Origin: an uncultured Clostridia bacterium
GTDB taxonomy: Bacteria; Bacillota; Clostridia; Christensenellales; UBA1242
Assembly (NCBI GenBank): GCA_934778125.1
Contig: CAKVOF010000001.1
Coordinates: 18,429-82,428, forward strand
Length of the DNA: 64,000 nucleotides
Direction: 5' to 3'
Position numbers and translations under genes: made by a program. Below are positions 18,085 to 63,392 of this stretch, one piece after another. Under the pieces are notes generated by a model. It did no database searches. It worked only from the letters and a program-made list of their open reading frames with translations, and was not told the DNA's origin. Numbering within the stretch: position 1 is the stretch's first letter; each line of letters opens with the position of its first letter.

Positions 18085-18132
18085 TCTCCTTTGCTCTAAA
18101 TATATTATTAAACAATTATATAATAATTATTT

Positions 18133-30821: not shown

Positions 30822-31205
30822 ATTAACTAGCAAAAGTTAATTAAATAGTGATAGCTTGTATTATTTGAAGTTGTAGGCAAACAGTCCAAAGGGATACTTG
30901 CTAGCAACTGATGTTAATCAAAACTGTGATTCCTTGATTTATCAAGGAGTTGCGTTTATCAACTTAAAATTTAACTTGATCAAATTTTACATCACTTAGT
31001 TTGTAATATTTAATTATTCTTTATGTTGCACACAACTTGCAAGTGCATCATCTTGCTTTAAATATTTTAAGCGCTTGTTTTTAATTTATGAAATCAATTT
31101 AAAGATCACTTTTTTTACAAGTGATATCGGAATATTAAAATAAAAACCTAAAACGCTTTTTAACCACATAATAGCAAATAAAAATAATTTTTCATAATAA
31201 ATAAT

Positions 31206-31391
31206 ATGAAAAAAATGTCCCCAGAAGAAATAGCACTAATTGGAACAAGTATCGCCGTGGATTTGTGTAAGGGCAGAGATGAAGAAGAACTTGAATGCAT
31301 TAGAAACATCGCTAACCAAGTGTGTTGCACCATCGGGAATATGATATCCCAAAAATGCCTATGCAATAAATATAATCATAAAAAGTTTTAG
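31206..31391 (+). CDS. Small Cys-rich protein (61 aa), function unknown
   Basis: The ORF contains 6 Cys residues. The N-terminal MSPEEIALIGTSIAV resembles a small-protein family common in Firmicutes (from recollection). No strong RBS is visible. Confidence 0.4.
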   Translation: MKKMSPEEIALIGTSIAVDLCKGRDEEELECIRNIANQVCCTIGNMISQKCLCNKYNHKKF

Positions 31392-31472
31392 CAAAAGATG
31401 TTTTTAAATAACCCACCCCTTGCAAATTGATATTATTTATGATAAAATATATATAATAAGGGAGGTGGTGTT

Positions 31473-32405
31473 ATGGAGAAAATCACAAATATAAACGATG
31501 GTGCAATTGATGATAATTTCTGCGTTTCAGATATGCTTGGTTCGTTTAAATTGTCTGAATTTAATGGTAAAAATGTTTTCTATCAAGATGAAGCTGGCGT
31601 TACTCATGAAGATGAGGCTGTTAAATTTTTTATAACAAACGCAAACACATCTTTATCAGATGATGTTATAGAAAAAATTGCGCGTGCTCCAAAGTATGTT
31701 ATAAGCGGGCTTGGCACTTTCACGGACCACCCATCACTTAAAAACATTTCATCTATAGCAAGCGGAAAAACCGAATTGAAAGATGAGCGTTTGCAAACCA
31801 TAAAAGATGCCGACACTTACACCGCCTCAAAAGAAATGGGCCGTTACTATGAAACATATGAGAAAACAAATCCCGACATAAATAACGGCGGAGTTTACTT
31901 CTTGGCATCGGTTATTGATGGCAAAGTGCATATTATGTCTCTTAATGTTTCTGAAACTGGCCAAACTGGAAAATCTGTAACGCTTTCGTATCTTCCAAAA
32001 GGAAAAGCAAAAGATGCTGTTATGATTGAAAGACTGTGTTTGCATGGAACACTTGGCAATAAGCATGTTAATCCAGATGGCTCAATTATTGAAAACACCG
32101 ACCTTCACATTCATAGAAACTCTGAAGCATATATTGATAGCATCATTTCAGATCCAAATTTAAGCGAGCACGATAAAGTTGTTGCCTTAAACTCTCCTCC
32201 AGCGAAGCTAATCAGAAATAATGTATACGAAAACGATTTATCTTTAACTGAAATGACACAGATTTTAAATAAAGACTACGGATTAAACTATTGCGGAATC
32301 CTTGACCAAATTATAACAGACACAGATATGCCCGTGACCGACGCAATAATAAAAGAATGCAAAATTGCAGAAAAGTTTAACCCAACAAATGATAATCCAA
32401 CATAA
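31473..32405 (+). CDS. Hypothetical protein (310 aa)
   Basis: There is a strong RBS (GGGAGGTGG) 5 nt upstream of the ATG. I recognise no motif. Confidence 0.6.
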   Translation: MEKITNINDGAIDDNFCVSDMLGSFKLSEFNGKNVFYQDEAGVTHEDEAVKFFITNANTSLSDDVIEKIARAPKYVISGLGTFTDHPSLKNISSIASGKTELKDERLQTIKDADTYTASKEMGRYYETYEKTNPDINNGGVYFLASVIDGKVHIMSLNVSETGQTGKSVTLSYLPKGKAKDAVMIERLCLHGTLGNKHVNPDGSIIENTDLHIHRNSEAYIDSIISDPNLSEHDKVVALNSPPAKLIRNNVYENDLSLTEMTQILNKDYGLNYCGILDQIITDTDMPVTDAIIKECKIAEKFNPTNDNPT

Positions 32406-47524: not shown

Positions 47525-48499
47525 ATGTCTTGGTTTGATATTATTTTTATCGCAATAGTTGCCATATTTGCAATTGTTGGGCTATGGAAAGGATTGCTGG
47601 ATAGCATTTTAGGCTTAGTCACAACCTTAGTTTCAATTGTTCTTTCTATTTGGTGGGCAAAACCAGTTGCAAAATTTTTAAGAAGAATTGTTGATATCGA
47701 CAACATCTTTTTTAAAATGCTAAAAGGTGCATTTGCAGAAAAAGAAACAATTAAAGTTTTAGGCGTTATTAGTTTAACGCGTGAAAAACTATCGGCATTT
47801 TTAACTGTTGCACTATCTGCTGTTATAATATTTATTTTGATAAGATTAGCTGTTTGGGTTGTTTCGAAATTATTTGATTCAGCAACCGCATCAAATAGTG
47901 CGCTATCTGGGCTGAATAGGGTTTTTGGGCTTGCGTTTGGCGTGGCTAAAGGCTTAGTTGTGTGTTGCGCAATTCTTGCTGGGCTTTATGTTATTGGAAA
48001 CACTGGGCTAGCAAAAAATCTAGACACAAAACTAGACAACACAAAAGTTGTTAGTTTCTTCTATAAGTATACTGGCGACTTTGTTACTGAAAAATTAAAC
48101 GCATCAAAAATTCAATCAATAATTGATGATATGAAAATTGAAAAGCGTGAAGATGAACTAAAAGACGACATAGCTAAAAATTCTGATGCTTGGTTTATAA
48201 AAGGAGCCTACAACGCAACAGATTCAGATAAAACAATGTTTATAAACGACTTAAACTATTCTAAAATCAATTATTTTAACAAAAAATCAGAAAAAACCGA
48301 AATTCGATTAAATAGCGAATCTATAAGCATTAAGTTCTTTCCTAATATGGAGGGTGCTGAAGCAATTTCTCTCGACTCAGTGTTCTCATTAAACGCGGGC
48401 GAAACAAGTAAAACGATTAAGATTAAAATAACCTACACCACATCTGATAAAGATTACAAACTAGAATATTTAATCACAATCAATAAACCAACCGAATAA
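47525..48499 (+). CDS. CvpA-family membrane protein with an extra C-terminal soluble domain
   Basis: The N-terminal MSWFDIIFIAIVAIFAIVGLWKGLL and the four TM segments are typical of CvpA. Confidence 0.7.
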   Translation: MSWFDIIFIAIVAIFAIVGLWKGLLDSILGLVTTLVSIVLSIWWAKPVAKFLRRIVDIDNIFFKMLKGAFAEKETIKVLGVISLTREKLSAFLTVALSAVIIFILIRLAVWVVSKLFDSATASNSALSGLNRVFGLAFGVAKGLVVCCAILAGLYVIGNTGLAKNLDTKLDNTKVVSFFYKYTGDFVTEKLNASKIQSIIDDMKIEKREDELKDDIAKNSDAWFIKGAYNATDSDKTMFINDLNYSKINYFNKKSEKTEIRLNSESISIKFFPNMEGAEAISLDSVFSLNAGETSKTIKIKITYTTSDKDYKLEYLITINKPTE

Positions 48500-48555
48500 A
48501 CATAAATCGCCTAATAACTTTTTATAACCCTTAACCCATCTATTTTAATCACACA

Positions 48556-48586
48556 AAAAGCCCCAATTAACATAGGGGCTTTTTTA
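48556..48586. terminator. Bidirectional terminator
   Basis: Stem aaaagcccc / ggggctttt with a T-run. Confidence 0.7.
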
Positions 48587-48645
48587 TTAAATCAAACTTA
48601 AAATTTAAAAATGTGTTAAATTGCTTTTTAAATCTCACCAAAAAC

Positions 48646-50130
48646 TCACACGCGGAACAACATCATTCCATCAAACACATCTTCGCTAGTTATATCAATT
48701 TTTAACTTTCTAAAAACTTCCTCGTTATTAGGAGTTAAAATAACCGATGAATGAGCTTTTGCTCCCGCTAGCAGTGGTAATGTTTCTAAAGCTTTTTTTG
48801 CCATATCATTTGTTGTGGCACAAACTGATAAAGCAATTAAAATATCCTTCAAACTCAATTTATAGTTTTTGTTGTTTAAATAATCCATTTTTAAAGTTGT
48901 GATAGGTTTTAAAATTTCTGGCGATATTAATTTAAATTCATCACCAATATTGGCCAAAGTTTTTAGTGCATTCAAAATCACGCTTGCACTTGCCGACAAA
49001 ACATCGGTTGTTTTTCCAGCAACTATTCTGCCATCGTTTAATTCAATTGCTATGCAAGGTGTTTTTGTTTTCATTGCTTTTTTAAGCGCTGGTTCAACAC
49101 ATTTTCTTATGTTTGGTGTTAAATTCATCTCCTTCATAAGCATCTCGTTTTTTTCAAATGCCGATAATATTTCTTGACCTCTTTTAAAATCAACCTTTGC
49201 TTTTAAAAATCTTCTAACTACCTCTTGCTCACATGCATCTTTCACTTTTTTTTCATCATCAATGCAAAAACCAACCATATTAACACCCATATCGGTTGGC
49301 GAAAAATATATATCTTTTCCATAAATATTGAAAAGAATTTGCCTAACAATTGGGAAAGTTTCTAAATCACGATTGTAATTAATAGCAACTTTTCCATATT
49401 TTTCCAAATGATAGTTATCTATCATATTAACATCACGCAAATCTGTTGTTGCAGCTTCATAAGCAATGTTCACAGGATGCTTTAAAGGTAAGTTCCAAAC
49501 TGGGAACGTTTCAAATTTTGCATATCCTGCTTCCACCCCACGCTTCTTTTCGTGATAAAGTTGGCTTAAGCAAGTAGCTAATTTTCCACTTCCCGGACCT
49601 GGCGCTGTTACAACCACAATTGGGCGAATTGTTTCCACATAATCATTCGCACCATATCCGCTATCGCTAACAATTGTTTCAACATCGTTAGGATATCCTT
49701 TAATGCACTTATGGTAGTAAACATTGATATTGTTTGCTTTAAGCAAGTTTGCAAATTTAACAGCATTTGGTTCTTGGTTAAACATCGTGATAACAACCGA
49801 ATTAACCATTATTCCAAGTTCCCTTAACTCATCGATTAACCTTAAAACTTCTCTATCGTAAGTGATGCCAAAATCTGCCCTAATCTTGTTATTTTCAATA
49901 TCTTTAGCACTCACACAAAAAAGGATTTCGATATCATCTTTCATTGTTTCTAAAAGTTTTATTTTGTTGTTTGGATTGTAGCCCGGCAAAACCCTTGATG
50001 CGTGCAAATCATCAAAAAGTTTTCCGCCAAATTCAATGTATAATTTTTTACCGAAAAGCTTGCACCTTTCTAAAATCTTTTCCTTCTGAATTTGTAAATA
50101 TTTTTCGCTATTAAATGCTTGTTTTTCCAT
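48646..50130 (-). CDS. UPF0371 / DUF1846 family protein
   Basis: The N-terminal [17 protein letters not shown]...[30 protein letters not shown] matches my recollection of the UPF0371 family. Confidence 0.8.
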   Translation of the reverse strand: [494 protein letters not shown]

Positions 50131-50340
50131 AAACTTCCTACCGTGTTTTTGTTTATTGTATTGTTTTGCTGGTTAACCTCCAAATAATTAAACACATCTT
50201 TTTTTAAAACTTTAAATTTTGTGCAACTTTAATGCTATTTGAATTATTCAAAACAACACTTTGCTTTGCTTTTCACATAACAACCTTTAATAAATATAAC
50301 TATTTTTCGTTTCAGATTTATATAATCATTATATTTTTAT

Positions 50341-50520
50341 GCGATAACTTTTCGTTTGATATTTATATTACACTTTATCTTTATATAATAAATCTTCATT
50401 TTGTTATATCTCCTCTCCGCTTATCATATCTTCAAATACACAACTAATAAAACCTTAATTTAGGCGTCCTTGTGCAAGGGAAGCTGTCACGAATCTTCAG
50501 TGAGTGACTGAAGGGTTGTT
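50341..50520 (-). repeat. Intergenic module E1 (box R, GC hairpin H, AT-rich module M), paralogous to 62838-63029
   Basis: H is 50463-50484 (aggcgtccttgtgcaagggaagc). R is 50491-50520 (gaatcttcagtgagtgactgaagggttgtt). M is 50341-50454 and is read on the minus strand. See the findings for the alignment. Confidence 0.7.
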
Positions 50521-50738
50521 TCCACTTATACTATCTCTTAATTGATTATTTTATCTTTAGTAAATTTTAGAATTTAAATCTAATTTATGCATTATTTAAA
50601 TTATAAAGCAAGTTTTATTTTATTCTATGTTAAAACTTAAGAATCGTAAAAAAAATAAAAGCCCTTTAAAAGCGCTCTTATTTCATTAAATAAAAAATAT
50701 TATGAAAAAACAATTAAAACCTAAAATAATCTTAATTA

Positions 50739-51455
50739 TCAAATCCCAAAAAGTTTATTTGCCCAAAACGAAAACTTGCTAGTTCCATAAGGCACAATTA
50801 TTTGCACTTTCCCTTGAATAGCACTTTTATCAACTGCGCCAAACTTTCTGCAATCCTCACTCACCAAGCGATTATCTCCCATACAAAAATAGGCGTTTTT
50901 AGGCACAACATACTCATAAAAATCATCACTTTCATCTGGCGTACCGTTATCGTTTTTAACAACAGTGCCCTCAACATAATTTTCGCCACCAAGCATAATT
51001 TTTTCCAGTTCATTGCCAGTTTTAGTTAGTTCATCGTGCCTTTTAAGTTCCTCTTTAATATAGTTTTCCTGTTGCAATTCACCATTAATAAACAACTCAC
51101 ATACACCCGTTACATCATTATATTCATAACGAATCCTATCTCCGCCAACCGCAATAACTCGCTTAATCAAACCCCTACCATTAACTTTCAAAACAACGAT
51201 ATCACCTTTTTTAATTTCAGCGAATCTATTCACATACACAACATCACTTTTATTTCCACCCTTTGCATTTAGAGTTGGTTGCATACTCGTTCCATCAACT
51301 TCCGCATCAAAAAAAACAATTGAAAACACAACGTATGAAAGCATAATCAAAAGAATAATAATATAAAGGGTGTTTGCCACCGCTTTATACCAACCATTTC
51401 TTTGCTTCTTATTAAATTGAAAATCTTCGCTAAAATTAAAAATTGGCTTATTCAT
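50739..51455 (-). CDS. lepB: Signal peptidase I (bacterial Ser-Lys type)
   Basis: GTSMQPTL (catalytic Ser box), a Lys box, and GDNRLVSEDCRKFG. The ATG at 51455 is preferred, because the track's start at 51494 is a TTG lying upstream of a TGtATAAT -10 element. Confidence 0.85.
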   Translation of the reverse strand: MNKPIFNFSEDFQFNKKQRNGWYKAVANTLYIIILLIMLSYVVFSIVFFDAEVDGTSMQPTLNAKGGNKSDVVYVNRFAEIKKGDIVVLKVNGRGLIKRVIAVGGDRIRYEYNDVTGVCELFINGELQQENYIKEELKRHDELTKTGNELEKIMLGGENYVEGTVVKNDNGTPDESDDFYEYVVPKNAYFCMGDNRLVSEDCRKFGAVDKSAIQGKVQIIVPYGTSKFSFWANKLFGI

Positions 51456-51633
51456 ATTTTTTTCCAATACTATTATACACTTCTTCAACGCCAATTAAAA
51501 CTGTTTTTATTAATAACCAACCTAATATTCCATATTTTATTTCACTTTTTGGTGAAATTGTGTATAATGAAATTGCTAACTTAAAATCACGGTTCTTGCA
51601 TAAGAGGGTTTTACCTATCATTAATCTTTATCA

Positions 51634-51929: not shown

Positions 51930-52004
51930 GCGTCCATAGTGAAATGGATATCACATAAGTCTTCGGAACTTAGATTTCGGGTTCGAGCCCTGATGGACGC
52001 ACCA
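51930..52004 (+). tRNA. tRNA-Arg (anticodon UCG), CCA encoded
   Basis: I folded the cloverleaf by hand. The acceptor stem is GCGTCCA/TGGACGC and the D-arm is GTGA-AATGGATA-TCAC. The anticodon arm is TAAGT-CTTCGGA-ACTTA and the T-arm is TCGGG-TTCGAGC-CCTGA. The discriminator is A, followed by CCA. Confidence 0.85.
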
Positions 52005-52331: not shown

Positions 52332-54353
52332 ATGATAGAATGCGAATGTAAAATGATTAATATAAATTATAAAAGAAAAGCAAAACTTTTTTCTATAATA
52401 TGCTTAATTATTATGCTTTTATTGTGTTTTGATGCATTCAAGAAGCATAATACTATTTTTTCAAACACATTATTAAACGCAACCACTTTAAACACAATGA
52501 GTGTTGATGAAATTGCGAACCAAGAAAAATATAATAGTTGTGATTTCGATATTGTAACCCCCACTCTTGATCAAGGAGACACAAATATTTGTTGGGCTTA
52601 TGCAACTGCAAGTGCATCGGAAACATCAATTTTAAAAGATAAGTTAGATAACAACACAAAAGACACTTTAAGATTTTCTCCAACACAAATTGCATATAGA
52701 ACCCACAACAGAGATAAAGACCCTCTTAACAACACCGTAGGGGTTTATGATAACAACAAATGGAATGAACCAGGAAACCCATTCAACACATTTTTGATGT
52801 TGTCGCAATGGTGTGCCCCAGTGGCTGGCAATGTGCATATGATGGCTAATGCATATGAAAATAACTTATATAGATTACTAGATGCCGAACAGATAAACGC
52901 ATATGAAACTGGCACATATAGAATAAACGAAATCAAGCGAGCAATTGCAAAATATGGCGCTGTAACTGGTTCGTATAACAATGCACGAAATGCGTTTTAT
53001 TACAACACAAAAGGAGAGCCAAACCCAAACGGTATTCCTCACGCGATAAGTATTGTTGGTTGGGACAACACAATTCCCGCAAGTAATTTTCAGCCAAAAC
53101 CCGCAAGCCAAAACGGTGGTTGGATAATTAAAAACAGTTATAATTCTCTTCCTTATTTTTACCTTTCTTATGATAGCCATATTGGAAATGTTTTCGGATT
53201 TAAATATGCCAAAAAATCAGAGTTCGACTTTAATTATTTTTACGATAACGTTAATGATCCTATACCTCAACACGAAACCGTTTCTAAATGTGTTTCAAAC
53301 GTTTTTGTGGCAAAGAAAGGCAACAATGATCATAACGAATTTGTTAAGGCTGTTAATGTGGCAACTATTGGATATAATCTAACCTGCAAAGTTCAAGTCT
53401 ACACCAATCTAACCGACCCAAAAAATCCCGAAAGTGGAACACTTTCCGCTTTGGGCGAACGAGTTTTGAATTATGGTGGATACCACACAATTATGCTAGA
53501 TAATCTTGCTAAAATTGATAAAGACTCATATTATTCCGTTATTGTGAGTGTTAGTAGCTCAAGTGGAGGAAGTGCAACCATTTTATATTCAAAAAACAAA
53601 AACCAAAACACTCATTATAAATCTTCAAGCGGTTGGAATAGCACGGGTTATGCTGGAAGAATAAAAGCCTACACCGTTTTGCAAGAAAAAGGAGAACCTG
53701 AGCAAAAAATAGATATATCTTCTGCCGAACACAGCATTATTTCTCCGATGCTATTTACCGGTCAAGAACTTTGCCCACAAGTAAACATAACGCTAAATTC
53801 ACAAACCTTAACTAAAGATGTGGACTACACTGTTTCCTACAAAAACAATATCAATGTTGGCACCGCTGAAATTATAATAAGTGGGATTGGAAAACACTTT
53901 GGAAGTTTAAATTTGCAATTTCAAATTTTGCCAATTGATGTGCCTATTAAACCCAATAATGAAATTAATGTTTCAAGCACCATATCAACCCTATCTGAAA
54001 TTGTTTTGCCTGAAGGTTGGCAATGGGAAAATCCGAATTTGCTAGTTATAAATATAACTAGCGCAACCGCAATTTATGTGGGCGAAAATAAAGATAATTA
54101 TAAAAACACCAAAGTGCAAATATCTTTGCAAAAAGAAGAACCTAGCAATCCTAATCCCAATAATCCCAGCCCCGATAATCCAAATGACAACAACACTCCA
54201 AATGACAACAACAATGATAATAATAAACCAAGCAACAAAGCCCCAAACAAACCAGATGTTATTCCTATAATAATTATATTTTTCGGTGTTATTGGAGCAA
54301 CATCTATCACAATAATCGTAGTTATAAAAAAAATCAAACAAAAAAGAAAATAA
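52332..54353 (+). CDS. Papain-like (C1 family) cysteine peptidase with an N-terminal signal/anchor, Ig-like region, Pro/Asn-rich linker and C-terminal TM anchor
   Basis: The catalytic Cys context is QGDTNICWAYA, the His context is PHAISIVGWDN, and the Asn/Trp context is GGWIIKNSY. The C-terminus is PNPNNPSPDNPNDNN... followed by a hydrophobic helix and KKIKQKRK. The start may instead be the ATG at 52353. Confidence 0.75.
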   Translation: MIECECKMININYKRKAKLFSIICLIIMLLLCFDAFKKHNTIFSNTLLNATTLNTMSVDEIANQEKYNSCDFDIVTPTLDQGDTNICWAYATASASETSILKDKLDNNTKDTLRFSPTQIAYRTHNRDKDPLNNTVGVYDNNKWNEPGNPFNTFLMLSQWCAPVAGNVHMMANAYENNLYRLLDAEQINAYETGTYRINEIKRAIAKYGAVTGSYNNARNAFYYNTKGEPNPNGIPHAISIVGWDNTIPASNFQPKPASQNGGWIIKNSYNSLPYFYLSYDSHIGNVFGFKYAKKSEFDFNYFYDNVNDPIPQHETVSKCVSNVFVAKKGNNDHNEFVKAVNVATIGYNLTCKVQVYTNLTDPKNPESGTLSALGERVLNYGGYHTIMLDNLAKIDKDSYYSVIVSVSSSSGGSATILYSKNKNQNTHYKSSSGWNSTGYAGRIKAYTVLQEKGEPEQKIDISSAEHSIISPMLFTGQELCPQVNITLNSQTLTKDVDYTVSYKNNINVGTAEIIISGIGKHFGSLNLQFQILPIDVPIKPNNEINVSSTISTLSEIVLPEGWQWENPNLLVINITSATAIYVGENKDNYKNTKVQISLQKEEPSNPNPNNPSPDNPNDNNTPNDNNNDNNKPSNKAPNKPDVIPIIIIFFGVIGATSITIIVVIKKIKQKRK

Positions 54354-54378
54354 AAACTATTTAATTTATACTAGTTAA

Positions 54379-54406
54379 AATCTTATGGTATAATTATCAT
54401 AAGATT
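54379..54406. promoter_or_regulatory. Perfect 9-bp inverted repeat overlapping a TATAAT box upstream of dfx (candidate operator)
   Basis: The sequence is aatcttatg-gtataattat-cataagatt, with TATAAT at 54389-54394. Confidence 0.45.
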
Positions 54407-54466
54407 GCAAGAAACTCTTGCCTTACTCCACTTTGCAATCAAAAAAAAATAAAAGGAGAATTAAAA

Positions 54467-54841
54467 ATGGAACAAAATTTTTATTATTGCAAGCACTGCG
54501 GAAATATTATTATTAAGGTTAACGATAGCGGAGCGCCACTAATGTGTTGTGGTGAGAAAATGGAAGTGCTTAACCCAAACACCAATGATGGCGCAAAAGA
54601 AAAACACGTGCCGATTTATTCTGTTAGGTGTGGCAAAGTAACCGTTAATATTGGCGAAATTCCTCACCCAATGGCACCCGAACATTATATTGAATGGGTT
54701 AAACTTCAAACCAATAAAGGCTTTCAATTCAAAAGATTAACTCCCCACGCTGAGCCAATCACCACGTTCAATATAAACAAAGATGAAAAAATCGAAGCGG
54801 TTTTTGCATACTGTAATTTGCATAGTTTATGGAGAGGTTAA
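54467..54841 (+). CDS. dfx: Desulfoferrodoxin (2Fe superoxide reductase)
   Basis: The N-terminal CxxC...CC pattern (CKHCGN...MCCG) is the desulforedoxin-like centre. EKHVP, HPM..EHYIEW and CNLHSLW supply the His4Cys centre ligands. Confidence 0.85.
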   Translation: MEQNFYYCKHCGNIIIKVNDSGAPLMCCGEKMEVLNPNTNDGAKEKHVPIYSVRCGKVTVNIGEIPHPMAPEHYIEWVKLQTNKGFQFKRLTPHAEPITTFNINKDEKIEAVFAYCNLHSLWRG

Positions 54842-54952
54842 TGGTATAGTTTGTTTATAAACCAAAATTAATACATTTTTCATTATTGTCTATTGTAATA
54901 TCATTTATAATGTGCTAGAATAATACAAAAATATAAAAGGTGGAAATATAAT

Positions 54953-55582
54953 ATGGATTCATTAGACACTCTTAATTTAGAAACAGCTCGCTCTATTAAA
55001 GAGATTAGAGAAAAAGAAAAAGAAATTATTAAAAATTATGATAATAACCACTCAAGCGAAATGCTAACAGCAGGAATAATTGAATTGAATGACCTTAGAA
55101 ATAAAACCTATTTTGAACATAGCAATTCATATGAATTTAACAGCGCAATATATAGAGCGAGTGGTGAAGATAAAACAACAAGAAAACTAATTTATGGAGA
55201 ATACAAACAATATTGCAGGTTTATAGCAAGGCTAATAACGAAAGAAAGCTTGCCTTTTGATGATTTTGTTAGTATATCTAGAAACTTTTTAGAAAATTAT
55301 TCTATGATTAGCCGTATTGATTATAGGGATTCTGCCTATAACACAACATCAAAAACTGTTGACAAGTGTAAAGAATACTTTGCTGTTGCATCTGTGAATG
55401 ATAAAACAGATGCTTCGGCAACCAAGTACTATGCTCTTAATCAATTATATGGTGAATTAATTTTTTGTGGTAATTATCCAAAAGCAGAAAACGAAGATGA
55501 TTTCTACGATATCCAAGAAGCTTATGAATTTGACGATCCAAACGATGATCGTGTTAATGAAATTTACACTAGAGGAAGATAA
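54953..55582 (+). CDS. Hypothetical cytoplasmic protein (209 aa)
   Basis: The RBS AAAGGTGGA lies upstream. I recognise no motif. Confidence 0.55.
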   Translation: MDSLDTLNLETARSIKEIREKEKEIIKNYDNNHSSEMLTAGIIELNDLRNKTYFEHSNSYEFNSAIYRASGEDKTTRKLIYGEYKQYCRFIARLITKESLPFDDFVSISRNFLENYSMISRIDYRDSAYNTTSKTVDKCKEYFAVASVNDKTDASATKYYALNQLYGELIFCGNYPKAENEDDFYDIQEAYEFDDPNDDRVNEIYTRGR

Positions 55583-55663
55583 ATTGTTAAAGAAAAACGA
55601 CATTAACTAAAAAACCATCTCTTGCAAAAACCCAAATAACCCACAAACAAAAATAAATGTTCT

Positions 55664-56419
55664 ATGATTGAAAACCATAAAAAACTAAACTCAAACGCAA
55701 TAAAAATAATAGCAATTGTTGCTATGACAATCGACCACATTGCGTGGGCGATTTTTCCTAACTACTCAGTTAACGCCCTAGCAATTATTATGCACACTAT
55801 TGGCAGAATCACTTGCCCTATAATGTGTTATTTTGTTGCCGAAGGTTTCTACCACACTAAAAACATAAAAAAGTATAGTTTAAGATTGTTTATTTTCGCA
55901 CTTATCTCCCACATTCCCTATATGCTTATGTTTGGTTCGTTTGCTGAAAAAGGGGCAATAGCTTTAATTCCATTCGCCACAGGCTTTTTAAATCAAACAA
56001 GTGTGATATGGTCTTTATTTATTGGTCTTATGATGCTAAGAGTTGCGAAAAATGAGAAACTAAGCCAACTTTTAAAGGTTGAATACACACTAATCTTGTG
56101 CGTTTTAGCGTTACCTGCCGATTGGAGTTGCATAGCATCTTTATTTATTCTATGCATAGGCACAAACCGTGGTAAACCATTAAACCAAATTCTATGGTGT
56201 TTGTTCTACACCATTATCTATTCGGTTGTTTATTTCTTTGCATTTTCAAAAGTTTACGCCATAATCCAACTTGGAGTTATTTTAAGCGTTCCAATCTTAT
56301 TTTTATATAATGGCGAAAGCGGAAAAAACATCAAACTCAACAAATTTATGAAGTGGTTTTTCTATGCATACTACCCGATCCATCTGGTAATAATCAGTTT
56401 GATTTTAATACTATGTTAG
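55664..56419 (+). CDS. TraX-family membrane protein
   Basis: The N-terminal LNSNAIKIIAIVAMTIDHIAW is the TraX signature region. The protein is multi-pass membrane. Confidence 0.75.
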   Translation: MIENHKKLNSNAIKIIAIVAMTIDHIAWAIFPNYSVNALAIIMHTIGRITCPIMCYFVAEGFYHTKNIKKYSLRLFIFALISHIPYMLMFGSFAEKGAIALIPFATGFLNQTSVIWSLFIGLMMLRVAKNEKLSQLLKVEYTLILCVLALPADWSCIASLFILCIGTNRGKPLNQILWCLFYTIIYSVVYFFAFSKVYAIIQLGVILSVPILFLYNGESGKNIKLNKFMKWFFYAYYPIHLVIISLILILC

Positions 56420-56497
56420 AGCATTAAATTTATCTTTACATCATAAAACAATCTATTCAAACAAAAAAGTTTCATAAATTTATGAAACTTTTTATTT

Positions 56498-57271
56498 TTA
56501 GGTTATAGTCACCTCAAAAGTAACTTCTATTTCACCGCCAACTTCCAATGCACCAACTTCAAAACCAACCGTTGGATCGAACCCTTCATCGCTCAGTGCT
56601 TTGTTGATTCTAACGCTTTTAGGCACAAAAACCGTTCCTTGAGGTATTTCATCTTTAAAAAACACGCTAGTATTTCTTATTTTCCCTGTGTTTTTGATAA
56701 TACTTTGATACATAAGTGTATCTCCGCTAATAACAACTGTTTTATTCGATGTTTTATCAATAACGAGTTTATTTTCGGTTATTTTAACCACCACTTCAGG
56801 TGTGAACTCACTCATATCTTCAACTTCATTTGCATTAAAGGTGACTTTTGTTTTTAGAGCAACACTTGTTGCAGAAGTTTGCTCATCAATCACCAACACA
56901 TACGACACAACTGCACCACTCTTTGGCTGAAACGAGTTTGGCAATGTTATTCCAGCAACAATATCCATATCAGGGAATGGCACGTTATCTATCTCAACCG
57001 AGCCAGGTTTAAAACTAGCACCCTCGCCAATAATTTCCTCAAGCCTAATATTCGTGATTTCCGACAAGCTTTCGTTTGCCAGTAAAATACTTTGCAATAT
57101 TTCATCTTTAGGCGCTCCATAATCCAACAACGAAGATTTATCTTTAACAAACGCCACCGATAAATTTTCCACAACACTTTCGTTGCTTTCAAATGTTATT
57201 GTTTGAGTGGTTTGGTCAGGTGCGGTGTAATTAGCTCGAACCTGAGATTTGTTTTTTATTGTTTTTTCCAT
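56498..57271 (-). CDS. DUF11 (conserved repeat domain) protein, no signal peptide
   Basis: The C-terminal LMYQSIIKNTGKIRNTSVFFKDEIPQGTVFVPKSVRINK...ALEVGGEIEVTFEVTIT has the typical DUF11 pattern. The RBS is AAGGTGA. The gene lies 47 nt downstream of the collagen-like gene. Confidence 0.65.
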   Translation of the reverse strand: MEKTIKNKSQVRANYTAPDQTTQTITFESNESVVENLSVAFVKDKSSLLDYGAPKDEILQSILLANESLSEITNIRLEEIIGEGASFKPGSVEIDNVPFPDMDIVAGITLPNSFQPKSGAVVSYVLVIDEQTSATSVALKTKVTFNANEVEDMSEFTPEVVVKITENKLVIDKTSNKTVVISGDTLMYQSIIKNTGKIRNTSVFFKDEIPQGTVFVPKSVRINKALSDEGFDPTVGFEVGALEVGGEIEVTFEVTIT

Positions 57272-57318
57272 TTTTCACCTTAAAATTTTATATAATATTA
57301 TTAAACACAACCAACAAC

Positions 57319-59145
57319 TTATGCAATTTGCACAACGGTTAACATAGCGCTTGGTGCTCCAGAACTCGTTAGTGTTCGATTGCTCGATAGTGTTGGAACA
57401 AGCGTGATCACATCGTTTGCTTTCAACCTTAACACAATTGTGCAACTCACATTCGTGCTGGTGGTTAATGGGCGTTTTGTTCCACCAACCAACGTGTTGT
57501 TTGAATATATTCCCACACAATCACCCGCAGTTGCGCTCGATCCATTATTGATTGAAAAACTCACTATATATGTTCCAGTATACTGAATTGTGATAGAAGC
57601 ATTATTAATGCTCATTCCGTTGTTTGTTAGCGTTGTGCCAAACGTTAATGGCCTACCATTCGCAATTTCTTGAGAGTTTTCTTCGTATATCGTTGCATTA
57701 ATATTGTTAGTTGTTCCAGGAGGGCCTGCCACCCCTTGTTCCCCTTTCACTCCTTGCGGGCCTCTATCGCCTTGCGGGCCTTTTTCACCTGGATCACCCT
57801 TTTCCCCCGTTTTACCTTTTGGAATCTGAAAATCTAAAAAATGCACATCGTTTTCATATCTATCTTCAACTTTTGCAGGTTCATTTTCCCCAACTAAAGT
57901 TGTTGTTCCCGCCATTATTATTTCATCACCTTTTTCTCCACGTTCGCCTTTCTCTCCTTTTTCACCTTTGGGAATATAAAACGATAGGTGATGAATATAG
58001 TTTTCAAAATTATCTAACACTTGCGCATCTTCTTCTGGGTTGATAGTTTCAGTTAGGTCTATCGATATTCCTTCACTTCTTCCTATCTCGCCCGGCAATC
58101 CTCTTGGCCCCGTTTCACCCGTTTCCCCTTTCTCACCTTTTGGTATGCTGAAAGTTAGATGATGCGTTGTTCCATCAAAATTATCTTCCACAACCGCATT
58201 TTCATTAGGATTTGTTGTTTGGGTGGCATCAACAACTATTTTTTCACCCACGCCCGTTTCACCTTTTTCACCCGGATCACCTTTGCTTCCTTGAACGCCT
58301 TGAATTCCTTGAGCACCCGTTTCACCCTTTGCACCCGTTTTTCCCCTTGGAATCTGGAAATCTAAAAAATGCACATCGTTTTCATACCTATCTTCAACTT
58401 TTGCAGGTTCATTTTCCCCAACTAAAGTTGTTGTTCCCGCCATTATTACTTCATCACCTTTCTCTCCACGTTCGCCCTTCTCTCCTTTTTCACCTTTGGG
58501 AATATAAAATGTAAGAAAATGAGTGTTATTTTCAAAATTATCTTGAACATTCGCATTTTCGCTTGGCTCTATTGTGTGAGTTTTATCAATAATTATTGTT
58601 TCACTACGCCCATCTTTTCCCGGCTCGCCTTTTTCACCCGGCTCACCTTTATTTCCTTGAACGCCTTGAATACCTTGAGCGCCCGTTTCACCCTTTGCTC
58701 CCGTTTTCCCCCTTGGAATATAAAAATCGAAAAAATGCACATCGCCTTCATATCTATCTTCAACTTTTGCCACGTTGTTAGGTTCAATAGTGTTGGTTTT
58801 GCCCACTAATATTTTTTCTGGCACACCATTATATCCTCTTGGAATCTCAAATTCTAAATAGGTTGTGTTTTCAATGTGTGTTGATTTAACGTTCGCTTCC
58901 TTTTCTGGTGGAAGCGTTTTTGTTGATTTAACAACAAGATTTTCACCGCTTGGGCCTCTATCACCTTTCGGCCCCGTTGCGCCCGTTGCTCCAGTTACCC
59001 CAATTGCTCCAGTTGCGCCCGTTGCCCCAGTTGCGCCCGTTGCCCCAGTTGCTCCTCTTAGCCCCCTTGGGCCGTGCTTTATATTTTCATAACACACCCG
59101 CTTTGATGATAATTTTTGATTTAAATATCTACACCAAAATTTCAT
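57319..59145 (-). CDS. Modular collagen-like protein with a BclA/C1q-like C-terminal domain
   Basis: The protein opens with a (GAT)n tract. Seven modules of about 36 aa follow (x-I-x-V-x-x-T-x-T...V-x-D-x-[YF]-E...H-[FH]-L-x-F-x-I-P-[KR]-G), alternating with GXY runs. The C-terminal roughly 135 aa end in APSAMLTVVQIA, which resembles the BclA C-terminal domain. The RBS is AGGAGA. Confidence 0.85.
   Translation of the reverse strand: MKFWCRYLNQKLSSKRVCYENIKHGPRGLRGATGATGATGATGATGAIGVTGATGATGPKGDRGPSGENLVVKSTKTLPPEKEANVKSTHIENTTYLEFEIPRGYNGVPEKILVGKTNTIEPNNVAKVEDRYEGDVHFFDFYIPRGKTGAKGETGAQGIQGVQGNKGEPGEKGEPGKDGRSETIIIDKTHTIEPSENANVQDNFENNTHFLTFYIPKGEKGEKGERGEKGDEVIMAGTTTLVGENEPAKVEDRYENDVHFLDFQIPRGKTGAKGETGAQGIQGVQGSKGDPGEKGETGVGEKIVVDATQTTNPNENAVVEDNFDGTTHHLTFSIPKGEKGETGETGPRGLPGEIGRSEGISIDLTETINPEEDAQVLDNFENYIHHLSFYIPKGEKGEKGERGEKGDEIIMAGTTTLVGENEPAKVEDRYENDVHFLDFQIPKGKTGEKGDPGEKGPQGDRGPQGVKGEQGVAGPPGTTNNINATIYEENSQEIANGRPLTFGTTLTNNGMSINNASITIQYTGTYIVSFSINNGSSATAGDCVGIYSNNTLVGGTKRPLTTSTNVSCTIVLRLKANDVITLVPTLSSNRTLTSSGAPSAMLTVVQIA
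57821..58509. repeat. Intragenic near-identical repeats of about 160 bp, 528 bp apart
   Basis: By hand alignment, 57821-57980 and 58349-58509 differ at 5 positions. Confidence 0.85.
58970..59060. repeat. Imperfect 9-bp tandem tract encoding (Gly-Ala-Thr)n
   Basis: The tract encodes GATGATGATGATGATGAIGVTGATGATG. Confidence 0.8.
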
Positions 59146-59367
59146 AAATTCTCCTATTTTTCGCCTATACTTATTATATAAATATTTTATAAATTTTGTT
59201 CATTTATACCTATTTAAACAACAAGTTACATTATCAATTGGAGTAAGCTTGTTTGGAACATATTGAAAATAAAAAAGACATATTAGTGTTACTAATCTAT
59301 TAGATTAATCCAATAATACGTCTTTAATTTTAGATTTTTCTTAAAATAACATATCTTTTTATTATAA

Positions 59368-62300
59368 TTAAACAATTTTTCCAGAAACATATAATCTAAT
59401 ATTATTTGCTAAAGTACCATCTTCATTAAATAATTTCGATAAGCCATTAGAATGATTAAAATTGCCTTTTGCTGGAGTTGTTTTTCCAGGATCTACAAAT
59501 ACATCACTAATTTCATATTTTTCACCATTTGGTGATTCGTTCATTATTTTTCCCAATAATTTAACAACATAATCTTTACTTTCATCATCAAAACCACCAA
59601 CCAATTTTGCATATATTTCAGGAATGTTTTTAATCTTAATAAGGAAATGGCCCTTCTCATCAACTTCATAATCTAAATAATATGAGTATGAAGAATTTCC
59701 TATATTATCATCGGTTATATTTATCGATTCACCTTTGAAATTTTCTAAAGATTTGCCTCCCACTTCATTTGTGCCTAGGTCAAAGATTAAAGTATATTGT
59801 TGCTGATCAGAACTTTGTTCTCTTTGCGCAAAATAAATATCTGTGTTTGAACTTGGCCATGCAACAAAAGGTTTTGTTAATGTTTCATCAATAAAAATTC
59901 CAGAGAAATAATTATAATTAACCCCCTCATACATTTCTGTTAGCGATTTAAATAATTCGCTAAACGAGTAACCCTCTGGGCAAGATTTTGGAATTGTGAT
60001 TGTGTGTGTTATTTTTTGAATAGTGTTGCTTGAATTTGAATAATCTAGGTTATGAATATTAATGATTAGTCCTTCATCATAAACCGCTTCAAATTTTATA
60101 TTAGATGAAACACCACTAGTAATTTGACATGTTTTAGTTAAAACGGTATCGGCTCCGCCAACTAATTTCCAGCCTTTGAAAATATATCCACTTTTTTCAA
60201 CACTTTCTGGTAAATTAATCAAGGTGTTTCCTTCCTTAACTAGTTCGTTTCCTACTAACTTTCCACCTTTAGTGTCGTACTCAGCAATATAAAGTTTCGT
60301 GTATTTCGCATATAAGGTACGCTCTTCCCCAAGGTAAACAGATTCAACATCTATTTTATTTTCAATTTTAAAATCCGCATCTGAATAGAATCCCTCAAAT
60401 AGATAGCCTTTTTTATAAGGGTATCCATTCTCGCTAATGTTATCCGCAAGCTTAATAAATTTATATTCAAAGCTTTCCATTGTTCCACCATTTAATTCAA
60501 ATGTGATTTTTGGAAGGCTAACATACTTAGCATAAAGTTCCATAACATTCCCCGTTTTTGAAACAGTTAACTTGTCATCAACGAATGCTGGAACTTTAAA
60601 CTCACGATCTAAATACCAGTTTTCAATTTTATTATTTTTTATAATTTTATCTGAAATTGCGTTGTCAAAGTCAGTTTTCGAAATAGTTGAACCAGCTTTG
60701 ATATATTGATTATTTATCTTTTCTAGTGTAAAGTCTTCTCCAATGTTGCAAGCCTTAATTTTAATGCTTTCATTATTTTTTAAGCTTATATCTTTATGTT
60801 CCGAAAATTCTGGATAAACAAAGTTAGATGTATCTTTATTAAACTCAATTGAGTATACCATTTTCTCGTATGTGTAATCAGTAGAGTATTCATTCTCTGT
60901 ATCTTGATTCGTTAGTAAAAAGTTATCTTCTAACTTCCAAAAAACATTAACACTTGTCAATTTTTGGTTTGAAAAATTTATCTCGACTTTTTGATTGACC
61001 AATGGGTTATTTATTATATGCGACCTTGCTTCACTATTTATATAAACCCTATTATATTCATATTCTTCCAATAAGATTGTTTGTTCAATGATTGCTGTGT
61101 AGTTTTCTTTAGTTGCATTTTCAGCCATTCTAAATGAAAATTTATAAGTTCCCTCACCATAAAGAGAATTTATTTTATCTATATCTTTTTGATTAGCATT
61201 TAGTAATTCTTGAATTATATCAGCACTTGATAAATTAAGCAAATTTTGAACCTCTAAACTATACGCTTCATATTCTTGCTTACTCAATTCAACCTTTGTT
61301 TTCTCCAAGCATTCCCATGATGAACTATAAAATAAGCTAGGAGTTCCAGAATTTAAATTTAGCACAACGTTTAATAAATAATACTTTCCGTTATCTTCAA
61401 TTAAATAAGAGCATGTTACTCCTTCATAGCTATCGGGATTAATTGAGCCATATTTACTAATCATTTGATTTTCAATTTTTTCATTAAAATCATCACATAA
61501 ACAATAATCCGGGTTATCCTCACTGCTAGCCTTAACTTTTATTTTATCAGTGTTTACATCAACTGAAATATCATAATAGTAGAAATTTTCAAAACCTTGA
61601 ACTTTTTCACTATTGCTTTTATTTAATAAATCAACTAATATTTTATCAATTTCAACATCGCTTTTTTCATAAGATATTGTTGCTATGCGATAATCACCAC
61701 TTGATTGTGACTTACAAGTGAAAAAAACTTCTTTTGAATTGCTAGCCTTATAATAATCATATGTTATTTTATAATATTCTTCAGTGCCATTAGTATAAAC
61801 CGATTCGCAAATTAAATCATTCTTCACTTGCCTTTTTCCATTTTCTGAATTTGAAGTTAAAAACCAGTTCTTTTGAGCTTTGGTGAGTTTTTTTCCCTTG
61901 TTATATGTCGTCAGTCCTGATACTCCACTTGATGTAGATACATGATACCACTCTCCTTTATCATTATCATAACACAAATAAGTTTCAAAATCTGTTAAAG
62001 AATTAAAATCATCGGCATTTTTAATCAATCCATTATTTATTCCGCCAGTTGAAGTTGACCTAAAGTCGACACTTCCTATCTCATCTTCTGGATCAGCTTT
62101 AAGCACTTGTTTTGCATAGTAATAATTACCATTTTCATCTTTATAAACATATAGTTTTAGTTCCCTGATAAAGAAGTACTTACTCTTATCAATATTATCG
62201 AGTACTGCAATAACTTTTTTGCCATTAATTAATTTCGATACCGCTTCCTGTTTATATTCATCAGATCCAAATAAAATACTATCCATCCCTTTAGATGTTT

Positions 62301-62454
62301 CATCTGCTAGAACTTTTTGTATGTCCGCTAATGTATATTCTGATGGATTAATTTCAGGCTCCTTTGGCTTTGATTTTCCACAAGAGTTAAGCATAAATAA
62401 GCAAGGAATGATCAGCACAATGGCCAAAAATAAACTAATAATCTTCCTTTTCAT
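59368..62454 (-). CDS. Large surface lipoprotein (1,028 aa) with Listeria-Bacteroides (InlB B / Flg_new-type) repeats
   Basis: The signal peptide carries the lipobox LNSCG. The contexts GYLFEGFYSD and GYIFKGWKL are typical of Flg_new repeats. The RBS is AAGGAG. Confidence 0.8.
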   Translation of the reverse strand: MKRKIISLFLAIVLIIPCLFMLNSCGKSKPKEPEINPSEYTLADIQKVLADETSKGMDSILFGSDEYKQEAVSKLINGKKVIAVLDNIDKSKYFFIRELKLYVYKDENGNYYYAKQVLKADPEDEIGSVDFRSTSTGGINNGLIKNADDFNSLTDFETYLCYDNDKGEWYHVSTSSGVSGLTTYNKGKKLTKAQKNWFLTSNSENGKRQVKNDLICESVYTNGTEEYYKITYDYYKASNSKEVFFTCKSQSSGDYRIATISYEKSDVEIDKILVDLLNKSNSEKVQGFENFYYYDISVDVNTDKIKVKASSEDNPDYCLCDDFNEKIENQMISKYGSINPDSYEGVTCSYLIEDNGKYYLLNVVLNLNSGTPSLFYSSSWECLEKTKVELSKQEYEAYSLEVQNLLNLSSADIIQELLNANQKDIDKINSLYGEGTYKFSFRMAENATKENYTAIIEQTILLEEYEYNRVYINSEARSHIINNPLVNQKVEINFSNQKLTSVNVFWKLEDNFLLTNQDTENEYSTDYTYEKMVYSIEFNKDTSNFVYPEFSEHKDISLKNNESIKIKACNIGEDFTLEKINNQYIKAGSTISKTDFDNAISDKIIKNNKIENWYLDREFKVPAFVDDKLTVSKTGNVMELYAKYVSLPKITFELNGGTMESFEYKFIKLADNISENGYPYKKGYLFEGFYSDADFKIENKIDVESVYLGEERTLYAKYTKLYIAEYDTKGGKLVGNELVKEGNTLINLPESVEKSGYIFKGWKLVGGADTVLTKTCQITSGVSSNIKFEAVYDEGLIINIHNLDYSNSSNTIQKITHTITIPKSCPEGYSFSELFKSLTEMYEGVNYNYFSGIFIDETLTKPFVAWPSSNTDIYFAQREQSSDQQQYTLIFDLGTNEVGGKSLENFKGESINITDDNIGNSSYSYYLDYEVDEKGHFLIKIKNIPEIYAKLVGGFDDESKDYVVKLLGKIMNESPNGEKYEISDVFVDPGKTTPAKGNFNHSNGLSKLFNEDGTLANNIRLYVSGKIV

Positions 62455-62837
62455 ATAAACTCCTTAATATATTTTTAGTGATTTTGCTTATCATTATTCA
62501 ATTAAAGCAAATAAAAATATGGTAACATCAATACTTTTCATCGAACAATAATATTACTATAATTAGATTAACATAATTTTTGTTTTTTTTCAAATATTTT
62601 TATATGTAAAGAAGAAATATATTGTGAGAATAAATTAATATTGTAGGAAACGAAAATTTAGTCATAGTTTTTAAAATACTCATCGATGTGGTTTAGAAGT
62701 CGGGTTCTTGAGGATATAATTAAGTATTTGATAATGGATAGTAAACTTTAATAGACATAATAATTTTCGTTTTAAAATTATATATCTACCTTGCTTATTA
62801 TAACAACCAAAAACAATACAAATTAATCTTTGATTTA

Positions 62838-63029
62838 GGTGTCCCTGTGCACAAGGAAGCCTTATTTAGCGGTTTATTGGTTGTGTGTTTGAGAAAATAA
62901 TAAGCGAAGTTAGGCATATAAATCTAAAACGAAGATTTATTACATAAAGATAAAGCATAATATAAAACTCAATCGAAAAATTATTTTAACAACACAAGGA
63001 ATCTACAAAAAGTGACTGAAGGGCTGTTG
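62838..63029 (+). repeat. Intergenic module E2 (GC hairpin H, AT-rich module M, box R), paralogous to 50341-50520
   Basis: H is 62838-62860 (aggtgtccctgtgcacaaggaagc). M is 62871-62987. R is 62999-63029 (gaatctacaaaaagtgactgaagggctgttg). The 9-nt sequence cacaaggaa occurs at both 62850-58 and 62993-63001. Confidence 0.7.
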
Positions 63030-63167
63030 TTGCGTATATCACTACTCAACCAATTATTCCACATAATTATTAAAAAGCAATTAAGCAAATTTACAAAATA
63101 ATATATAAATTTAATTGATTATTTATAAAATAAATATTAGTATAATAATATATCAAGGAGAAATAAA

Positions 63168-63392
63168 ATGGAAGAAAAAACAACTTACAAATCAAAAGTT
63201 ATTTGCGATGCAATTTGCGGAATTTTAATGCTTCTATGCATTATATCTTATATTTGCGTTGGGCTTTTCGCTAAAGTATGGCACCCAACTTGGATTATCC
63301 TTGTTGGCGGAGCAGTTGCTTGCGGAATTATTGGAATCATTAATTCAACCGTTATTAATATGAAAGAAATTAATAACAAAAGCACCAAATAA
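63168..63392 (+). CDS. Small two-TM membrane protein (74 aa)
   Basis: The RBS AAGGAGA lies 8 nt upstream. The protein has two hydrophobic helices. Confidence 0.55.
   Translation: MEEKTTYKSKVICDAICGILMLLCIISYICVGLFAKVWHPTWIILVGGAVACGIIGIINSTVINMKEINNKSTK

Follow-up and report, generated by a model that had tools for sequence, protein, structure and literature searches.

Genomic context of the E1 and E2 loci

The DNA analysed here (64 kb, referred to as the window) contains two unusually long intergenic spacers, E1 and E2, of 608 bp (50131–50738) and 713 bp (62455–63167), respectively. Neither spacer carries a called gene in the gene predictions made on the strain contigs, and the local G+C content at the modules described below is approximately 27%. 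E1 lies beside the DUF1846 gene (48646–50130, minus strand; confirmed by Pfam). E2 is situated between divergent genes, one of them the ORF at 63168–63392 (plus strand) that encodes a 74-aa membrane protein without a Pfam match. The spacer lengths and flanking genes agree with the original prediction, which was made by reading the sequence.

On the other side of E1, the S26 peptidase gene is followed by what looks like its intrinsic terminator: at window 50650–50690 on the minus strand, 50–90 nt past the stop codon, lies a hairpin (AAATAAGAGCGCTTT/AAAGGGCTTTTATTT) with a T-run behind it. Transcription of E1 together with this upstream gene is therefore improbable.

The block between E1 and E2 (window 52332–62454) encodes mainly predicted surface proteins: a papain-like peptidase that carries a lectin-like domain, a DUF11 protein, a 1028-aa Listeria-Bacteroides-repeat protein and a collagen-repeat/BclA-C protein, the repeats of which differ from strain to strain. 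A stop-free frame of at least 6,042 codons occupies window 1–18126 on the minus strand, begins with a lipoprotein-like signal (MKMKKCLMVLLMVLISPIMFLASCGN...) and runs off the window start. With this start and a length of more than 18 kb, it is a giant gene for a surface protein or lipoprotein; the window end cuts it, and it is missing from the ORF list for that reason. At window 22299–43165 there are five aminoacyl-tRNA synthetase genes (Ala, Cys, class II HGTP-type, Tyr and Ile). No T-box leader was detected in the 64 kb at the Rfam gathering score; the absence of T-box leaders beside such synthetase genes is unusual for a Firmicute-like genome.

Sequence similarity between E1 and E2

The E1 region 50481–50317 (minus strand) aligns by blastn with E2 62842–63009 (plus strand) at 76.5% identity over 170 columns (E = 2.5e-28), and 130 of the 163 ungapped positions are identical (79.8%). 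The Smith-Waterman score of this pair is 80. Scores for 300 dinucleotide-preserving shuffles were 20.7 ± 2.5, with a maximum of 30 (z = 24), and 84 other real segments of the AT-rich window, taken on both strands, scored no higher than 33. Chance is excluded as the source of the similarity. Paralogous modules at 50454–50341 (minus) and 62871–62987 (plus), about three quarters identical by hand alignment, had been proposed together with a comparison against shuffled controls. That proposal is borne out, and the computed alignment is somewhat longer than the hand-made one. No third locus was found inside the 64-kb window when it was searched by nhmmer with the copy profile, which returned E1 and E2 only.

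Modular architecture of the repeat

Alignment of the copies, including those found on other strain contigs (see below), gives the module order T-hp-H, then U in one or more units, then M, then T'. The coordinates are listed in Table 1. The elements are approximately 250–400 nt long, lie in spacers and are non-coding. Module T (~45 nt) is placed at the 5' end in E1, E3a and E3b and occurs inverted at the 3' end in E2_R and E3b; from this placement it looks like a terminal inverted repeat. Both terminal modules are intact in no single simple copy, and the 3' end of E1 is a degenerate match. The core H is built round the palindrome TGTGCACA. U (~77 nt) is tandemly amplifiable and is followed by a TATAA(T/A/C) box that is conserved in all copies. 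M is AT-rich, consists of AAAACGAA-centred sub-repeats and falls into two subtypes, one shared by E1 and E2_R and the other by E2_L, E3a and E4.

Table 1. Positions of the repeat modules in the window and of the copies on strain contig L059.
Feature	Location	Strand	Remarks
E1 terminal module T (AATAATCAATTAAGAGATAGTATAAGTGGAAACAACCCTTCAGTCACT)	50502..50550	-	Aligns with the 5' end of E3a and with the reverse complement of the 3' ends of E2 and E3b
E1 small hairpin hp (CTTCAGT-CACTC-ACTGAAG)	50495..50513	-	RNAfold -7.7 kcal/mol
E1 core H (GCTTCCCTTGCACAAGGACGCC)	50463..50484	-	Weak and different fold (-3.6 kcal/mol); conserved core TGCACA
E1 unit U (GGTTTTATTAGTTGTGTATTTGAAGATATGATAAGCGGAGAGGAGATATAA), one copy	50402..50453	-	3.7 tandem copies of the 77-nt unit here in strain L018
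E1 AT-rich part M, subtype 1 (GAAGATTTATTATATAAAGATAAAG...)	50317..50401	-	Best-conserved block common to E1 and E2_R
E1 degenerate tail	50241..50316	-	Read from sequence; tentative assignment
E2 left arm, inverted H-U-M subtype 2	62671..62849	-	Points towards the 1028-aa surface-protein gene; nhmmer E = 5e-48
E2 core H, palindrome centre	62837..62862		GTGCAC at 62847–62852; -8.1 and -10.2 kcal/mol on the two strands
E2 long imperfect palindrome	62750..62950		Hairpin of ~190 nt, arms ~90 nt
E2 right arm, H-U-M subtype 1	62850..63009	+	U at 62871–62912; part aligning with E1
X1 hairpin (ATAAATCT/AGATTTAT)	62918–62940		Within the E2 right arm
E2 inverted terminal module T'	63011..63057	-	Plus strand reads AGTGACTGAAGGGCTGTTGTTGCGTATATCACTACTCAACCAATTATT; reverse complement aligns over ~45 nt with the 5' T of E1 and E3a
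E3a/E3b	L059 8421–8822	+	NUDIX to P-type ATPase spacer; E = 4e-59 and 2e-31
E4	L059 11621–11420	-	MgtE to ArsR-like gene spacer; E = 1e-38
E5	L059 13554–13663	+	MgtE to DegV spacer; E = 4e-7

A 17-nt motif (AACAACCCTTCAGTCAC) lies 5' of H in E1 (50520–50504) and, inverted and with one mismatch, 3' of M in E2 (63012–63028); these two matches in the window compare with 0.13 expected. In the tail of E1, more AAACGAAAA sub-repeats are tentatively recognised, together with an incomplete U-like beginning (GGTTGTTATGTG) and what may be a degenerate T in inverted orientation (GTGTTGTTTTGAATAATTC); nhmmer gives only a weak match there (50324–50277, E = 0.0085). The hp position is occupied in E3 by a different hairpin (TCGAC-ACT-GTCGA), set apart from that of E1 by a matched G/C insertion.

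E2 matches its own reverse complement at 67.8% identity over 230 nt (blast, E = 3e-22). Since this self-palindrome is centred on GTGCAC inside H, the left arm represents an inverted copy and H the fusion point; judged by its sequence, E2 consists of two copies joined head to head at GTGCAC. The M module of the left arm matches E3a and E4 and does not match E1. The segment 62750–62950 has a minimum free energy of -48.1 kcal/mol compared with -30.1 ± 3.6 kcal/mol for shuffles (z = -4.95), and none of 200 shuffles folded as well. A GC-rich hairpin H had been predicted to precede M at both loci; both of the quoted sequences are there, and the hairpin is stable in E2 only. The AAATCT...AGATTT hairpin noted earlier is present as X1, with an 8-bp stem.

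Further copies and differences between strains

Contigs of other strains were found through exact-protein look-ups, and copies on them were located with the family HMM (nhmmer). A count of copies, as recommended with the original prediction, yielded more copies in the same species, in three further spacers of strain L059 (Table 1), each of roughly 770–800 bp. In E3, a 98-nt stretch made up of T-hp-H-U is directly repeated; its second copy passes straight into an inverted T, and the element opposes the 3' end of a convergent gene. E4 and E5 are without H. Some strain contigs have a short unannotated gene call at E4.

Altogether, five spacers with copies are known in approximately 80 kb of species DNA, all of them within approximately 25 kb. 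No copy was detected in window 1–50 kb or in six more species contigs covering window 21–42 kb, and the latter six contigs also showed no polymorphic insertions. Strains differ in unit number and in the mosaic rather than by clean presence or absence. For example, strain contig L018, from a Hadza gut metagenome, is 98% identical to the window, and at E1 the 77-nt U is present in 3.7 tandem copies in L018 (TRF score 335) and L019 compared with one in the window. The tandem units of L018 repeat at 78% identity. A CRISPR array was considered for this tandem array and rejected: the would-be spacers are themselves repeated at 78% identity, and no cas genes lie nearby. The E5 mosaic differs between strains L059 and L090. 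The synteny of L059 with L056 ends at L059:8335, 279 nt past the NUDIX gene, and the family-HMM match to E3 begins at L059 8421, 86 nt beyond this break. Among 11 strains, the E2 module contains 13 segregating sites in 340 positions and the rest of its spacer 30 in 371, and this lower polymorphism could reflect constraint.

Other repeats and a gene difference were observed in the same contigs. E5 is flanked by a 112-nt direct repeat with internal hairpins, module B (GACTCACATAAGAATGATGACTATGGCTGAG...GCCATATCA; L059 13434–13545 and 13637–13747), for which no Rfam match was found; L090 has one B and a different neighbouring module. Approximately six copies of the motif AATGTTTCAAT (variants ...TTCATT and ...TTCAATGTGG) occur at ~55–65-nt intervals at L059 11064–11440 on the minus strand, between E4 and the start of an ArsR-like (HTH_5)/P-type ATPase operon. 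This stretch is 99% conserved in L090 and may represent either a series of operators or one more tandem repeat. Contigs L081–L083 carry an extra 527-aa ABC transporter gene (7894–9477) between an MFS transporter gene and a 310-aa ORF. The window (~30821–31473) and L080 are without this gene, and no repeat copy lies at the site.

Sister species and database searches

Orthologous loci were compared in sister species with 66–79% protein identity (DUF1846 72–73%, 74-aa protein 66%, MgtE 79%). No copy was found at the DUF1846, 74-aa protein or MgtE loci of the sister species. The sister-species DUF1846 gene follows CvpA after a 118-nt spacer without the module and has the opposite orientation to that in the window, so E1 fills an inversion junction. 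The 307 nt upstream of the sister-species 74-aa protein, part of which is a called ORF, are likewise without a copy. When window 47525–51494 is compared with sister contig L012 (5270–9679), two small genes (159 and 162 aa), located in the sister species between DUF1846 and the S26 signal peptidase gene, are missing in the window.

Searches of larger collections gave chance-level results. A 21-nt core pattern had 7 chance matches in the GTDB representative genomes, among which the source species is not included. In the JGI metagenome contigs, from which the source species is absent, a strict U pattern had 0 matches and a looser U/M pattern 14, none extending past the pattern. Three patterns run against IMG/VR returned chance matches only, and blastn against plasmid and phage collections returned no match. 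As far as searched, the family appears to be confined to one uncultured human-gut Clostridia-like species.

RNA structure and transcription signals

One explanation for the paralogous modules is that H, U and M act as transcribed RNA, either as 5' leaders of the genes for DUF1846, the 74-aa protein, the 1028-aa surface protein and the ArsR-like regulator, or as trans-acting sRNAs. The modules match no Rfam family. At the gathering score the only match in the 64-kb window is tRNA-Arg(TCG) at 51930–52004, the best E-values for E1 and E2 at permissive thresholds are 1.5–6, which is the chance level, and L059 8–14 kb has no match. RNAalifold on eight copies predicted 0 consensus pairs. Single copies fold no better than shuffles (z of -0.4 for E1, +0.5 for E2_R and -0.3 for E3b), and the head-to-head junction of E2 is the only segment with a significant folding z. 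H is stable only in E2 (-8 to -10 kcal/mol; -3.6 in E1 and -1.5 in E3). In the 11 strains with E2, four of five variable paired sites break the pair and 0 are compensated.

The structure and covariation check recommended earlier left only the local hairpins X1 and hp with a few paired changes. Between E2_R and E2_L, X1 shows two compensated pair changes, and the hp stem is kept through paired changes between E1 and E3. In E1 and in variants from other strains, the X1 stem is disrupted. Palindromes can gain paired changes by template switching, and for this reason the changes in X1 and hp are not taken as proof of selection.

Only one terminator-like hairpin was scored at the E1 and E2 loci; it is internal to E1 and on the opposite strand. 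Promoter-like sites are not commoner than in shuffles. A sigma-70 promoter in U was considered and rejected: the TATAAT is conserved, but a workable -35 spacing exists only in E2_L (TTGTTA-18-TATAAT).

Gene orientation fits the leader reading in part. E1, both arms of E2 and E4 lie upstream of and co-oriented with the next gene, so that four of the five oriented arms are directed at a gene downstream; the earlier statement that each module has this placement holds for these and fails for E3, which faces the end of a convergent gene. Given the terminator-like hairpin after the S26 peptidase gene and a promoter-like site before E1, E1 could be contained in a long DUF1846 leader. Transcribed RNA is also favoured by the conserved box after U, by an E2 module less polymorphic than the rest of its spacer and by the paired changes in X1 and hp. 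Against these points stand the folding and Rfam results above, the pair-breaking strain substitutions and the sister-species orthologues without an upstream module, on which ground a conserved leader was rejected. A variation from one to four units between 98%-identical strains is also unusual for a functional RNA. A conserved regulatory RNA is not supported, and we regard a leader or sRNA family as unlikely.

Probable origin and proposed spread of the repeat family

E1 and E2 are probably loci of a mosaic, BOX/MITE-like family of interspersed non-coding repeats. The similarity of the copies, their modular architecture with inverted terminal modules, the tandem variation and the strain mosaicism are consistent with this reading, as are the copy-free orthologous loci of sister species and the missing conserved RNA structure. 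The original prediction had offered either a function, as an sRNA family or a shared regulatory region, or a mobile or duplicated element; the evidence sides with the mobile or duplicated element and against the RNA.

Copies may have spread between spacers by transposition in trans, through a transposase, or by recombination. Slippage or unequal crossing-over would then have altered the number of U units (1 vs. 3.7), a head-to-head fusion at the palindromic core would have produced E2, and modules would have been exchanged between copies. The copies may be substrates or scars of genome rearrangement. Because E1, both E2 arms and E4 are upstream of and co-oriented with genes and E3 is not, an incidental effect on neighbouring genes is possible. 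Such an effect, through a 5'-leader hairpin or an added -10-like TATAAT, would be a by-product and not the cause of conservation.

Manual inspection of the E1, E2 and E3 flanks, which has low power at such imprecise boundaries, found no target-site duplication, and similarity between element ends fades gradually outward. No clean filled-versus-empty site was seen among the strains, and no transposase or recombinase among the Pfam-scanned window ORFs. No parent IS with the same ends was found in the window ORFs or in the plasmid, phage and IMG/VR collections searched for the repeat. Since target-site duplications, filled and empty sites and a transposase were not found, and since the copies lie within approximately 25 kb, the family is classed as working like BOX/MITE elements and not as a proven MITE.

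The clustering of the copies also fits a purely local segmental duplication, in which one spacer was copied a few times in a ~25-kb variable region and decayed, with neither mobility nor function. All five copy-bearing spacers lie in that region, window 1–50 kb and 21 kb of the six further contigs are free of copies, and the missing target-site duplications and transposase point the same way. Local duplication does not readily account for copies in both orientations with differing module combinations and inverted terminal modules; the sequence beside the copies was not duplicated along with them, and the tandem amplification and strain mosaic changes indicate ongoing turnover. We consider local duplication by itself very unlikely.

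A DNA-level role was also weighed, in which a protein, for instance a dimeric regulator or a site-specific invertase, would recognise the core (CCTTGTGCACAAGG) and the sub-motifs as operators or recombinase sites, and the modules would identify the members of a regulon or delimit invertible segments. In its favour, what is conserved in H is a palindromic sequence and not a covarying stem, and E2 is placed between divergent genes. Furthermore, E1 and E2_R are mutually inverted and bracket the 12-kb surface-protein gene block, E3 and E4 are inverted and bracket the P-type ATPase and ArsR-like genes, and DUF1846 is inverted relative to the sister species. The window, however, contains no recombinase or obvious cognate regulator, E4 and E5 are without H, and no strain has the bracketed blocks flipped (L018 and L056–L058 are collinear with the window). 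The genes beside the copies have no functional relation to one another, and copies at 76% identity are poor substrates for homologous inversion. Binding or recombination sites of this kind are quite improbable. By eye, no convincing resemblance to dif, parS, DnaA-box, Spo0A-box or CodY-box sequences was seen in the modules. A DGR template/variable repeat pair was considered and set aside: neither copy codes for protein, and no RT domain showed up when the window ORFs were scanned with Pfam.

A strain-variable regulatory cassette, in which a transcribed leader or an element near the promoter, with one to four U units and changeable orientation, would tune or phase-vary the adjacent genes (DUF1846, the 1028-aa surface protein, the 74-aa membrane protein, and the metal ATPase with its ArsR-like regulator), is kept in consideration because of the low polymorphism of E2, the orientation bias and the paired changes in X1 and hp. 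We give it a slim chance.

As a BOX/MITE-like family, these repeats are a previously undescribed mosaic interspersed family of an uncultured, small-genome gut Clostridia-like species that occurs in Hadza and other gut metagenomes. They explain the unusually long spacers and mark sites prone to rearrangement and to breaks in assembly. They could serve as strain-typing loci, like BOX, and could mislead ncRNA-discovery screens that rely on within-genome paralogy. The kind of repeat is well known, and the finding raises no new biological question.

Comparison with known repeat systems

REPs are GC-rich hairpins of ~35 nt that are recognised by RAYT transposases. BIME/REP and NIME elements of proteobacteria share with the present family palindromic units and a mosaic of a few motif types, placed in direct or inverted orientation in spacers. 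In contrast to REP, the palindromic core of this family is stable only at the E2 junction, and the host is low-GC and Firmicute-like rather than proteobacterial. No RAYT-like gene or Y1-transposase domain was found in the window ORFs. The family does not correspond to REP/REPIN elements.

MITEs such as Correia/NEMIS in Neisseria, RUP in S. pneumoniae and bcr1 in Bacillus cereus resemble this family in being small (~250–400 bp), non-coding and AT-rich; all copies are below the ~500 bp expected of such elements. Hairpin potential, location in spacers and association with rearrangement are further shared features (MITE criteria: PMC3049150). The terminal modules occur in inverted orientation and look like terminal inverted repeats, and the copies are multiple, in five spacers within approximately 25 kb. 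Unlike MITEs, the family has yielded no target-site duplication, no parent IS or transposase and no insertion polymorphism, and its terminal modules are not both intact in one copy.

BOX elements of pneumococcus and the BOX-type elements of Streptococcus suis are likened to this family by their published description, sequence similarity not being expected, and none of the 7 chance matches to the core pattern in GTDB is in a streptococcus. The internal unit boxB is ~45 nt long, compared with 77 nt for U, and dispersed BOX copies in a pneumococcal genome number roughly a hundred, compared with approximately five loci in one 25-kb region here. The head-to-head dimer that gives E2 its ~190-nt palindrome is not described for BOX. 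In BOX, terminal boxA and boxC flank a strain-variable tandem number of boxB, as boxA-boxB(n)-boxC (Croucher 2011, PMC3049150). BOX and MITE elements are typically AT-rich, with terminal inverted repeats and stem-loops, and BOX copies lie in spacers, form clusters, nest within one another and are reported to affect nearby genes as a side effect (PMC3049150). Both BOX and the present family are intergenic, non-coding, AT-rich and modular, have terminal modules able to pair and an internal module in strain-variable tandem number, and form clusters in which copies insert beside or into one another (PMC3049150). From its module order, the family appears to be a composite of the BOX type, with terminal modules enclosing a tandem internal module of variable number.
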